From Octopus sinensis (taxonomy: Eukaryota): 64,000 bases of DNA. Below the pieces are notes generated by a model, which was not told where the DNA came from, did not search any database, and worked only from the letters and a program-made list of their open reading frames with translations. The stretch is from NCBI RefSeq assembly GCF_006345805.1, contig NW_021832267.1, forward strand, positions 1 to 64,000, written 5' to 3'. Positions 3,901-46,200 of the stretch are shown piece by piece; position 1 is the stretch's first letter; the number at the start of each line of letters is the position of its first letter. Position numbers and translations under genes: made by a program.

Positions 3901-4724
3901 CACTTCAGTAATGTAGCTTCAGCATTTCCCTTTCTCCTTTCGGACGAGGAGCTATGCTGGAAACGCCAAAAGCTCTCTCTTTTTACTAAGTGTCAAACTA
4001 ATACATTTCTCGTGCACGCCCTCTTGCAATCTTATTAATTTTATTTTCCGTTTATTTGAATTGTCTCTATATATGTATGTATGTGATTTTTTTTTTGTGT
4101 GTGTGTATGTATATAAGTATATATAGATGTGAGTGTGTGTATGTATGCACCCATTTATGTATCGTTTAAGTATGCAAGAATGAAGGAGTTTTATATAATT
4201 AAAACGTCTTTAAAGTCAAGGGCTACATAGTTTATAATCTCCATAATTTCAATTAATTGATTTTATTGGCATTATCTCCCATTTTGTATCTTTTTTTATT
4301 TGTTAAACAAGCCGAGAAGGACATTTTTCAACTTCTTATCTTATAAATGGAACTTCTAATGATCTCGTACTTTTTTCTCCCCAATATCGATCATAGTCAT
4401 AATCAACGTCGCTACTCTTCCTATATCTATATACATTTATGTGAAATATACTCTGTTGTATAATAATAAGACTCAAACATGTCCGTTACTTCTACCACTT
4501 AGCGTAAAAATCGAAATATATTTCCACCTGAATCTTCTCTAGTTTCTAAAACTTGCAGTTGATTTTTAAACGAATTATCTCTTAAGTTCCTCGTTTTTAT
4601 CTTTTCAGACATATGTGTAGGAAGCTTTTATATTGAAACTGAATGGAAAACTCAGTAATTTGAAGTTTTTTCCATCCATCTATCTATCAATCCCTCTGTC
4701 TCTCTGTTTATTTATGTATCTGGT

Positions 4725-11800: not shown

Positions 11801-12514
11801 TATAAATACGCATTCATATATATATATACATATACGTATATACATTTACACATATATATATATATTACATATGATAATGTATATGTACTTATATATTTGT
11901 ACGTGCACTTATATATGTGTGTATATATCCGTTTGTGCTCCAGTATGTATATACATATATATGTTATCTATGTACGTATGTACGTACATATGTATTTATG
12001 TATATTCAATCACATGCATACGCACTTATAAATATCTAACATACATATATACAATTAGATTAAAGGAGACTAGAAATGGCATTCGTTTTTTATTATTTGG
12101 TTTGAGATTGAGAGGCTGCAAGAATAATTGTTAGCAATCAAATCAGAGATTAGTGTAAGACATAAGATGGAAATATAGACGCACAGGGGGAGAGAACTGT
12201 GTTAGTTGGACAAATGTCTTTTGTCAAGTTGTGATATAGCTTAATATATCATTATGTTCTTTCATGGCGTTCAATGTTAAATAAGTTTACTAATCAATAA
12301 TTACTAGTTCATAGACATGCATATGTGTATTATCTTTGCACGCGTGTATATAAGTATGAACAATGATGCACGCGTGTGTGTATGTGTGTATGCATACATA
12401 TATATATGTATATATATGTATGTATGTATGTATACATATACATATACCTACATACATATATATTATGTTAACATACATCTCCAGTAAGAAACGTCATTTT
12501 AAATATATATATAC

Positions 12515-12571
<57 letters not shown>

Positions 12572-12808
12572 TATATAGATATATATATATATTCATATAG
12601 ATATATACATCATGATAGATCGCTAGCCCACTAAACATTCTTTATTTTCTTTCCCTGTTTTTTTTTCTGTGTTCCTTTCTGTCGAAGAGCTTAGGCTCGA
12701 AACGTTTGAAAAATTTTTTAATTCCCGAGCGTTAAACTAATACATCTGTTTGTTGTCTACACCACCTGTGTTCGTCTTTTGTTTCTTTTTTTTGTGAATT
12801 CTCCCTAA

Positions 12809-12850
<42 letters not shown>

Positions 12851-12935
12851 GTTTTAATATATATATAATATGTATGTATTATATTGTATGTATGTATATA
12901 TATATATATACATACCTGTATATATATATATATGT

Positions 12936-13001
<66 letters not shown>

Positions 13002-13030
13002 ATAGATAGATAGATATATATATATGCTCT
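7720..13030. repeat. Extended (TA)n/(CA)n/(GA)n compound microsatellite region
   Basis: Direct reading; representative of many such tracts (1965-2350, 25610-26560, 35470-35900, 42420-43400, 61240-62350). Confidence 0.9.
12610..12808 (+). mobile_element. Non-coding mini-element with hammerhead-like motif (12675-12710), in (TA)n
   Basis: CTTT-CTGTCGAA-GAGC-TTAG-GCTC-GAAAC-GTT; whole element is homologous to 46036-46200 (minus strand). Confidence 0.75.
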
Positions 13031-15749: not shown

Positions 15750-15785
15750 TTTTTTGATGAAGAACAGACGTCCGAAACGTGAAGA
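15750..15785 (+). ncRNA. Decayed hammerhead-like motif of the mini-element family
   Basis: TTGATGAA-GAAC-AGAC-GTCC-GAAAC-GTG-AAGA; GUG at the cleavage position suggests it is inactive. Confidence 0.5.
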
Positions 15786-26484: not shown

Positions 26485-26930
26485 AACCATATAGATAAAC
26501 ACGATATAGATATCTACATATAGACAAGACAGATATATAGATAAATATGATATAATGAAATACACGTACACTCACGTGCGTATGTATGTAGGTGTCTATG
26601 TGTGTTTTTGTACTTCATTAGCATTCAAACTCCGACTAATATATGTACAGGCAAACATACACATTAATCTATATTTCAATATATATTCACACAGCAAGCA
26701 TACGTACATACACTTGAGCTAATGAAAGTCAAAACACTAGGAGATTTAGCGAACTTATTTTTCATTGGTTTCTCAGTCTATGTATCTAATCGTATATATA
26801 TATATATATATTATATATATATATATATATATAATATAAGAATATATATATATATACAATATATATGTTTTCTCTCTCTCTCTTTCTTTCTCTCTCTCTC
26901 CCTCTCTCTCTCTCTTCTTCTCTATTTTTC

Positions 26931-26966
26931 CTTTCTGTCGAAGAACGTTCGCTTGAAACGTCAAAG
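26931..26966 (+). ncRNA. Hammerhead-like motif of the mini-element family
   Basis: CTTT-CTGTCGAA-GAAC-GTTC-GCTT-GAAAC-GTC-AAAG; stem I CTTT/AAAG and GUC triplet intact, stem II eroded. Confidence 0.6.
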
Positions 26967-27027
26967 ACTTTTCCATTGTTCCTGACCGTCATACACGCAC
27001 GCGCGCGCACGCACATATATGTGTGTT

Positions 27028-40497: not shown

Positions 40498-40911
40498 GTA
40501 TTTCTTTATTGCCCACATAGGGCTAAATATAGAGGGGACAAACAAGGACAAAGTATTTTAGTCGATTACATCGACCCCAATGCGTAAATGGTAATTATTT
40601 AATCGACCTCGAAAGGATGAAAGGCAAAGTCGACCTCGGCGTAATTTGAACTCAGAAGGTAACGCTAGACGAAATACCTATTTCTTTACTACCCACAAGG
40701 GGTTAAACATAGAGGGAACAAACAAGGACAGACAAAGGGATTAAGTCGATTACATCGACCCCAGTGCGTAACTGGTACTTAATTTATCGACCCCGAAAGG
40801 ATGAAAGGCAAAGTCGACCTCGGTGGAATTTGAACTCAGAAGGTAACGCTAGACGAAATACCGCTAGGCATTTCGCCCGGAGTGGTAACGATTCTGCCAG
40901 CTCGCCGCCTT
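40498..40911 (-). mobile_element. Family A SINE head-to-tail dimer (full copy 40677-40911 plus headless copy 40498-40678)
   Basis: Two colinear copies joined at GACGAAATACC. Confidence 0.9.
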
Positions 40912-46018: not shown

Positions 46019-46035
46019 ACACATACTATATATAT

Positions 46036-46196
46036 AGGGAGAATTCACGAAAAAAAACAAAAGACGAAGACTAGTGGTGTAGAAAACAAACAGATGTATT
46101 AGTATAACGCTCGGGAATTGAAAAGTCTTTAACGTTTCGAGCCTACGCTCTTCCACAGAAAGGAACACAAAGAAACAAGGCGAGAAAAAAGGAGAG

Positions 46197-46200
<4 letters not shown>
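46036..46200 (-). mobile_element. Non-coding mini-element with hammerhead-like motif (46127-46162), flanked by (TA)n
   Basis: Minus strand: CTTT-CTGTGGAA-GAGC-GTAG-GCTC-GAAAC-GTT-AAAG; stems I and II perfect, palindromic ACGT stem III. Confidence 0.75.

Follow-up and report, generated by a model that had tools for sequence, protein, structure and literature searches.

Our analysis reveals, in the genome of Octopus sinensis, an abundant lineage of repeats carrying a hammerhead-shaped motif with U in place of the normally invariant A at core position 6, and comparison of its subfamilies suggests that this U6 motif is likely kept by selection. We are confident that the repeats are the 5'-truncated 3' ends of a coding Penelope-like element (PLE).

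The window analysed is a stretch of 64,000 nucleotides (contig NW_021832267.1, positions 1 to 64,000), and searches were run against its own 2.72-Gb genome. A first-pass annotation of the window listed six motif sites, all of which are present on direct reading, and described the motif accurately (U6, an extra A, stem II GAGC/GCTC, GAAAC and a palindromic ACGT). It treated the six as one family; they are instead three U6 copies, two copies of sister families and one single-copy non-member (Table 1). The U6 lineage comprises the sites at 12675, 46127 and 26931, with U6 in the best copies as described, and the A6 sites that had been taken for divergent members belong to sister families B and E. 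The site at 2558-2600 was rejected as a family member, being single-copy, with itself as the sole candidate in the genome.

Table 1. Features of the window related to the hammerhead-bearing repeats.
Feature	Position	Strand	Basis
5'-truncated 3' end of Penelope-like retrotransposon, U6 lineage, subfamily S3, decayed (focal copy)	12611-12805	+	90.9% over 197 nt to S3 consensus
Hammerhead stem I, 5' arm CTTT	12675-12678	+	pairs with AAAG in 7 of 7 subfamily consensuses
Core C3 U4 G5 U6 C7 G8 A9 plus extra A; U6 at 12682	12679-12686	+	sequence, genome counts
Stem II GAGC/GCTC, 4-nt loop TTAG here, GTAG in family	12687-12698	+	sequence, consensuses
G12 A13 A14, palindromic A15.1-C-G-U16.1, H17	12699-12706	+	sequence; agrees with published min-HHR consensus
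H17 (U), predicted cleavage site	12706	+	sequence
Stem I, 3' arm, broken: TGAAAA instead of AAAG	12707-12712	+	sequence compared with alignment
(TA)n microsatellite, 5' flank of focal insertion	12503-12607	.	repeat reading
(TA)n microsatellite, 3' flank of focal insertion	12808-13025	.	repeat reading
Second U6-lineage 3' end, intact motif 46162-46127	46035-46198	-	92.5% to S3 consensus
Old decayed U6-lineage fragment, motif 26931-26966	26903-26994	+	81.5% to oldest subfamily consensus
Sister family B copy, A6, decayed; consensus core CCGACGA	3917-4070	+	87% to B consensus
Motif of old sister family E, decayed; consensus core CTGATGA, stem II GGAC/GTCC	15750-15785	+	25 other genome matches

The focal copy has 39 other scored matches in the genome at 86-90% identity (the best 40 of 2,952 first-look candidates), and its homologues elsewhere extend into EN and RT. 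It is called decayed because the 3' side of stem I is broken: the CTTT/AAAG pairing that had been described stands in the family consensuses and fails in this copy. The flanking repeats confirm that the clearest copies are bounded by (TA)n. The best-preserved motif in the window is the one at 46127, and the 26931 copy can be aligned over about 90 bp; a subfamily with its own GTTC loop was considered for the latter and discarded, as none appeared among the first 100 of 154 matches listed. A query with the family B copy gave 592 first-look candidates, of which the best 40 were scored. A relaxed minimal-hammerhead descriptor matched the window five times, against a mean of 0.27 and a maximum of 3 in 100 dinucleotide shuffles; three of the five matches are the copies at 12675, 26931 and 46127, and the other two, unlisted, are probably due to chance. 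The window copies themselves are decayed by-products. Separately, positions 40499-40862 hold two tandem copies of a 184-bp unit, present in many fetched loci as well, which we take to be part of an apparently abundant SINE-type repeat.

The coding parent is seen in longer copies. An EN frame lies upstream of the motif in 2 of 30 loci (L008 and L022), and a genome search with this upstream EN DNA returned 20 loci, 13 of which carry the motif at the match limit, every one with U6; several of the 20 run on into an RT with YIDD. The RT domain matches RVT_1 above the cut-off (E = 2.5e-7; 31.1 bits, cut-off 29.6). The EN domain gives a weak GIY-YIG match just below the cut-off (E = 8e-4; 20 bits, cut-off 22.6), and an intact protein relative scores equally weakly. 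This EN is C-terminal, has two Cys within its core and two His (CCHH, read by eye), and is preceded by an RT-EN linker, C-x4-C-xx-C, as it is in five of seven relatives checked. Many of the 336 protein relatives carry RVT_1 and some GIY-YIG, with PF01541 present in several; the named ones belong to corals, an anemone, a shark and a newt. Among the long copies, three young ones agree at 93-95% across 3.7-4.2 kb; frameshifts, which may stem from assembly error or from decay, break their reading frames. The motif lies 0.5-0.9 kb downstream of the EN, and some 100 nt separate it from the fixed 3' end.

Taken together, the RT, the C-terminal GIY-YIG-type EN with CCHH, the CX2-5CxxC linker, the fixed 3' end, the frequent 5' truncation and the microsatellite targets are those of an EN+ Penelope-like element, putatively of the Neptune type. 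The Penelope link proposed in the annotation is thereby borne out, long copies with RT and EN carrying the same U6 core; its statement that there is no ORF holds for the window copies and not for the family. An upstream motif, as in a pLTR partial tandem, was found in none of the three longest copies, two of which are themselves truncated; L008 holds a single tandem of a long and a short copy. The tandems in L226, L297 and L298 were rejected as element tandems, since they take in unrelated DNA from the flanks and have the look of local duplications. In the last of these (L298:4180-5430), an array of units of about 312 bp, each combining a U6-lineage motif with unrelated DNA, reversion to A6 in some units places canonical cores side by side; the array resembles a nascent retrozyme and is probably a local duplication. 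Fragments of a distant GIY-YIG-type EN family that has a comparable cysteine linker (36-40% identity) were also noted at L149:2067-2285, L229:887-1081, L125:432-683 and L233:43-177.

The description of the repeats as very abundant is upheld by 13,278 exact U6 matches genome-wide and by 11 matches in 530 kb of evenly spaced stretches, which scale up to some 56,000 copies in the genome (Poisson range, about 28,000-100,000). All scored family copies have the 3' end in common, followed by a simple repeat, and differ at their 5' ends. Among 62 copies on contig C1, chosen solely by an exact 29-nt motif match, the 5' end lies between 5 nt and more than 3.4 kb upstream of the motif (by approximate count, 39 at 100 nt or less, 6 at 101-300, 7 at 301-900 and 10 beyond 900), and it is this wide spread that identifies the short copies as 5' truncations. 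In 59 of the 62, the 3' end is followed by a simple repeat of the TA, TC, TATC or a similar type, and a second motif within 3.5 kb upstream occurs in four. Genome copies are roughly 140 bp to 4.1 kb long, so the uniform size of 170-200 bp first given does not hold, nor does it for the fragment of about 90 bp at 26931. The repeats are mostly solitary motifs whose long copies are coding, unlike the non-coding tandem hammerhead units of non-LTR retrozymes; and they have spread 5' ends and a coding parent, unlike SINE-like repeats with a fixed 5' end and no such parent. At L142:8978-9585, two U6 3' ends lie back to back in inverted orientation, about 300 bp apart, with private mutations in common, as expected of one PLE insertion with 5' inversion.

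Position 6 is nearly fixed as U. With the rest of the 29-nt pattern held constant, 13,278 of the 13,734 exact-context matches have U, 138 have A and 318 have C or G, the reversed-pattern control giving none. Position 7, which had been described as limited to C or G, takes all four bases genome-wide. Within the family context, A6 has a frequency close to that of a loop transversion, of which a looser pattern finds 154. In the 30 A6 loci examined, the flanks and N7 match whichever U6 subfamily each locus belongs to, and the A6 copies are scattered over the subfamily tree; they are thus point mutants. Their alternative interpretation as an ancestral subfamily is ruled out by the same flanks and scatter, together with the presence of U6 in the oldest subfamily sampled (86 U, 12 C and 2 A among the first 100 of 324 matches listed).

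When positions 6 and 7 are masked, the 3' ends give a ladder-like tree in which many forks are weakly supported (9 of 97 starred). In the DNA tree of RT/EN, eight U6 copies are separated from two A6 copies with full support. The most economical reading of these sequences is that A6 would be ancestral, on a root assumed from the published consensus, and that U6 arose once, before the oldest sampled subfamily. Locus L295 was left out of the tree; at L295:2600-6980 a U6-type RT/EN is joined to a 3' end of family C (A6), possibly as a chimeric or nested insertion. As A6 belongs to the definition of the minimal hammerhead (min-HHR) and is missing from this lineage, we file the motif as a variant derived from the min-HHR and not as a canonical member.

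All seven subfamily consensuses, whose mean divergence ranges from about 9.5% to 1.3%, have U6, in agreement with the earlier proposal that the element spread with a non-canonical core. Across them the 36-nt motif varies solely at N7 (U, U/C, G, A, C, U and U, from the oldest to the youngest) and at H17 (A, A, U, A, A, A and U in the same order), the two positions that the hammerhead leaves free. The finding of only A and U at H17 in the consensuses makes the absence of G weak evidence. Varying columns number 0 of 30 in core and stems and 0 of 4 in the loop (GUAG); of the 121 ungapped columns in the flanks, 62 vary (Fisher p = 1.2e-8 for core and stems compared with flanks, a value that overstates the case because most consensus sets were chosen with motif-fixing patterns and the columns are not independent).

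Given this motif-based choice, copies found with a tail-only profile were taken as a check, giving 43 distinct copies once the window copies and six duplicate or selected loci were set aside, 32 of them with an ungapped motif. These 32, picked by tail or EN alone, return the same consensus, with U6 in 30, N7 as 9 U, 5 A, 11 G and 7 C, and H17 as 14 U, 17 A and 1 G. The positions C3, U4, G5, G8, A9, G12, A13, A14, A15.1, U16.1 and H17 are without exception as the min-HHR requires in the seven consensuses, and each is so in 29-32 of the 32 copies; the extra nucleotide between 9 and 10.1, the G10.1-C11.1 pair and the palindromic 15.2-16.2 are all present. As far as sequence comparison can tell, selection has likely maintained the hammerhead shape around U6.

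The sister families extend this picture. Family B and most of family C keep A6 and have a U4C core (CCGACGA; 7,450 exact matches), of which loci L234-L263 and window 3917-4070 are examples. The canonical U4 pattern has 4,267 exact matches, part of which may reflect CpG decay, and a subfamily of C has U4. Family C is joined to RT and EN in L294 and L300 and has stem I GTTT/AAAC against CTTT/AAAG in the U6 lineage. For families B and E, no coding parent was found within the 1.5-kb flanks of 30 and 20 loci, respectively, so that their assignment to PLEs is based on the 3'-end sequence they share. Stem conservation above background is found across families: 93.8% of stem cells pair, compared with 20-49% in slid controls (14 distinct hand-picked rows), the shuffle control being optimistic because the rows are related. 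Both sides have changed in three of eight pairs, one C-G/G-C exchange in helix I and two pairs in helix II. Within the U6 lineage the stems are invariant, without compensatory change, and covariation is confined to comparisons across families. In addition, a block GAGCG ... CTAATA, or a close variant, lies 15-35 nt downstream of the motif in U6, B, C, D and E (for example at window 12724-12742), and from its sequence is a candidate protein-binding or initiation signal.

Folding calculations point in several directions. Stem II has a pair probability of 0.99 in short folds of two other copies, and monomer folds are no better than shuffles (z from -0.6 to +0.6). At -12.9 kcal/mol, the active dimer fold is predicted to be weaker than both the alternative dimers (-24.6 and -28.0) and a pair of separate monomers. 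The statement that Rfam and strict-core searches miss the motif proved correct: the copy at 46030-46200 gave no Rfam match at E<=10, and in a scan of the whole window the top 150 of 355 matches listed are of the simple-repeat miRNA type only. A canonical-core sister copy likewise gave no hammerhead match, which indicates that Rfam is blind to such minimal motifs and that its silence is no evidence.

By analogy with published PLE ribozymes, our preferred reading, held with evenly balanced confidence, is that the U6 motif would be a slow self-cleaver, maintained by selection within a coding PLE and needing a second copy and the element's protein. The element's EN would nick TA-rich DNA, and reverse transcription would begin about 100 nt downstream of the motif and mostly stop early, giving rise to the short copies; solitary copies would be passive by-products. 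Following published PLE work, cleavage is predicted to fall after G-U-H17; two ACGU palindromes would come together as helix III, and the reaction would be slow, with assistance from protein. In this regard, the hammerhead tertiary fold predicts the observed pattern, in which N7 and H17 change freely and the rest stays fixed, and this favours slow assisted cleavage. Candidate partners for a dimer are scarce, with an upstream second motif in only four of the 62 copies and in none of the three longest, and this counts against the reading. A narrower version, which we regard as doubtful, is that A6U was a selected retuning that made the motif a gated hammerhead, off as naked RNA in Mg2+ and on with its own protein or another metal, the gate timing the cut within the transposition cycle.

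The invariant loop, the poor dimer energy, the missing upstream partner and the result in Anolis described below leave weight for a non-catalytic role. The same element could carry a U6 motif that does not cut and serves as a folded signal for protein binding in RNP assembly or for the start of RT, a reading that we consider less probable than cleavage and still worth serious attention. A U6-A15.1 pair could then convert the junction into one long hairpin that contains tandem G-A pairs; such a hairpin is indeed the predicted monomer fold of the young subfamily, although the S3 copy is predicted to fold differently. The GUAG loop is invariant alongside the core, and sequence-specific binding accounts for this as well as catalysis does. 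Mutations at position 6 strongly reduce cleavage in published ribozymes (PMC7151607; PMC9901934), cleavage is dispensable for insertion in vitro in Anolis, and Naiads spread without a canonical hammerhead. Against this reading, however, the varying positions are exactly those that are free in a catalytic hammerhead, N7 takes all four bases so that there is no conservation of the hairpin's U7-A14 pair, and the same core persists in sister families with other loops. Our findings support cleavage and an RT recognition signal, the two functions put forward in the annotation, as the right options.

The remaining explanations are far less probable than slow cleavage or a signal. A6U could have killed the motif in one master element, with no selection acting now: the change is expected to be damaging (PMC7151607; PMC3088659; PMC9901934), master lineages can fix damaging changes, and the consensus sets were partly chosen on the motif. 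Such a relic is very improbable and largely refuted by the lack of change in the 30 constrained columns across seven subfamilies with divergences from 1.3% to 9.5%, compared with change in 62 of the 121 columns in the flanks, and by the identical consensus of the 32 copies not chosen on the motif. Equally improbable is the discrete, self-amplifying mini-element of 170-200 bp using borrowed PLE enzymes, the first-pass annotation's own proposal: 25 of the 39 C1 copies that end within 100 nt of the motif start 58-99 nt upstream, a clustering that makes a preferred short form possible, but the copies have no 5' boundary in common against a fixed 3' end, short copies are plain sub-sequences of coding long ones with the same core, and the diagnostic tails S3, S4, S6a and S6b are all attached to RT/EN in the long copies examined.

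The lineage amounts to a natural experiment, in which a normally invariant core base was changed, the rest was kept and an estimated 28,000-100,000 copies were made, with A6 sister families in the same genome as controls for U6. If U6 cleaves, the known hammerhead core is widened; if it does not, the fold has been selected for something besides cutting. Should the retuning be true, a natural U6 ribozyme would have been retained across seven or more subfamilies and tens of thousands of insertions. In either case, strict-core searches miss whole high-copy families.

Much of the background to these repeats is already established. PLE hammerheads, the minimal fold, the extra A and the abundance of Penelope in octopus (PMC13282606) are known, and the extra A, the short palindromic helix III and the Penelope link were published in 2014 (Cervera and De la Peña, 2014; PMC4209133). 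What appears to be new is the lineage-wide A6U, which was found neither in the literature searched nor among the 56 rows that PMC4209133 shows in its Fig. S3; the small PLE hammerhead variants of Lunse et al. (2017), summarised in the review PMC6765202, may already include U6, and published supplements may likewise bear on this point. Nor did the literature searched, including PMC11014351, yield a measured cleavage rate for A6U.

The closest relatives of the motif are the metazoan PLE min-HHRs, which cleave weakly as dimers and are mostly single motifs from truncated PLEs (Cervera and De la Peña, 2014; PMC4209133). The octopus motif agrees with their consensus in CUGANGA-H, G10.1-C11.1, the palindromic 15.2-16.2, U-H and the short helix I; both have a U-rich 5' flank and occur mostly as solitary copies of truncated PLEs, and the row of the Neptune element of Acropora digitifera has the same 4-bp stem II with a 4-nt loop. 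In contrast, a whole octopus lineage has U6, where 56 of 56 rows in Fig. S3 of that study have A6; the core variant it reports is U3-A8.

At the level of the element, the likeness is to the EN+ PLEs Neptune and Nematis (Craig et al., 2021; PMC8557442), with a single ORF encoding RT followed by a C-terminal GIY-YIG-type EN, the CX2-5CxxC linker that marks elements of this type, heavy 5' truncation, (TA)n targets and a hammerhead near the 3' end. The octopus element differs from them in its non-canonical core and in that no upstream pLTR was seen in its three longest copies. The same study describes the spread of Naiads without a canonical hammerhead and calls the role of PLE hammerheads unclear. 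In line with an assisted reaction, the hammerhead of the Anolis Poseidon element PAc cleaves solely with its protein (Frangieh et al., 2024; PMC11167929); catalytic mutants had no effect on its insertion in vitro, and no RNA ends were seen at the cleavage site. PAc shares with the octopus element a PLE hammerhead and AT-rich targets and offers a model for protein-assisted cleavage, but it belongs to another clade and its motif overlaps the ORF start, whereas the octopus motif lies about 100 nt before the 3' end. Metazoan non-LTR retrozymes (bioRxiv 10.64898/2026.07.22.740005) are likewise hammerhead-bearing, PLE-related repeats; theirs are non-coding tandem units, whereas the octopus copies are solitary truncations of a coding element.

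Regarding position 6 itself, a deep scan found single mutants in the CUGA turn to be low in activity (PMC9901934), and in one ribozyme A6C lowered the rate to 3.6e-6 per min, from 0.3 for A6, in 0.3 mM Mg2+ (PMC7151607). A natural substitution at this position is nevertheless represented by the C6 hammerhead of phage Bcep176 (PMC3088659; PMC7151607), which still cleaves, weakly in Mg2+ and well in Mn2+. It differs from the octopus motif in having C instead of U, in being one phage example with full stems as opposed to a minimal motif with more than 13,000 exact copies, and in having been assayed.
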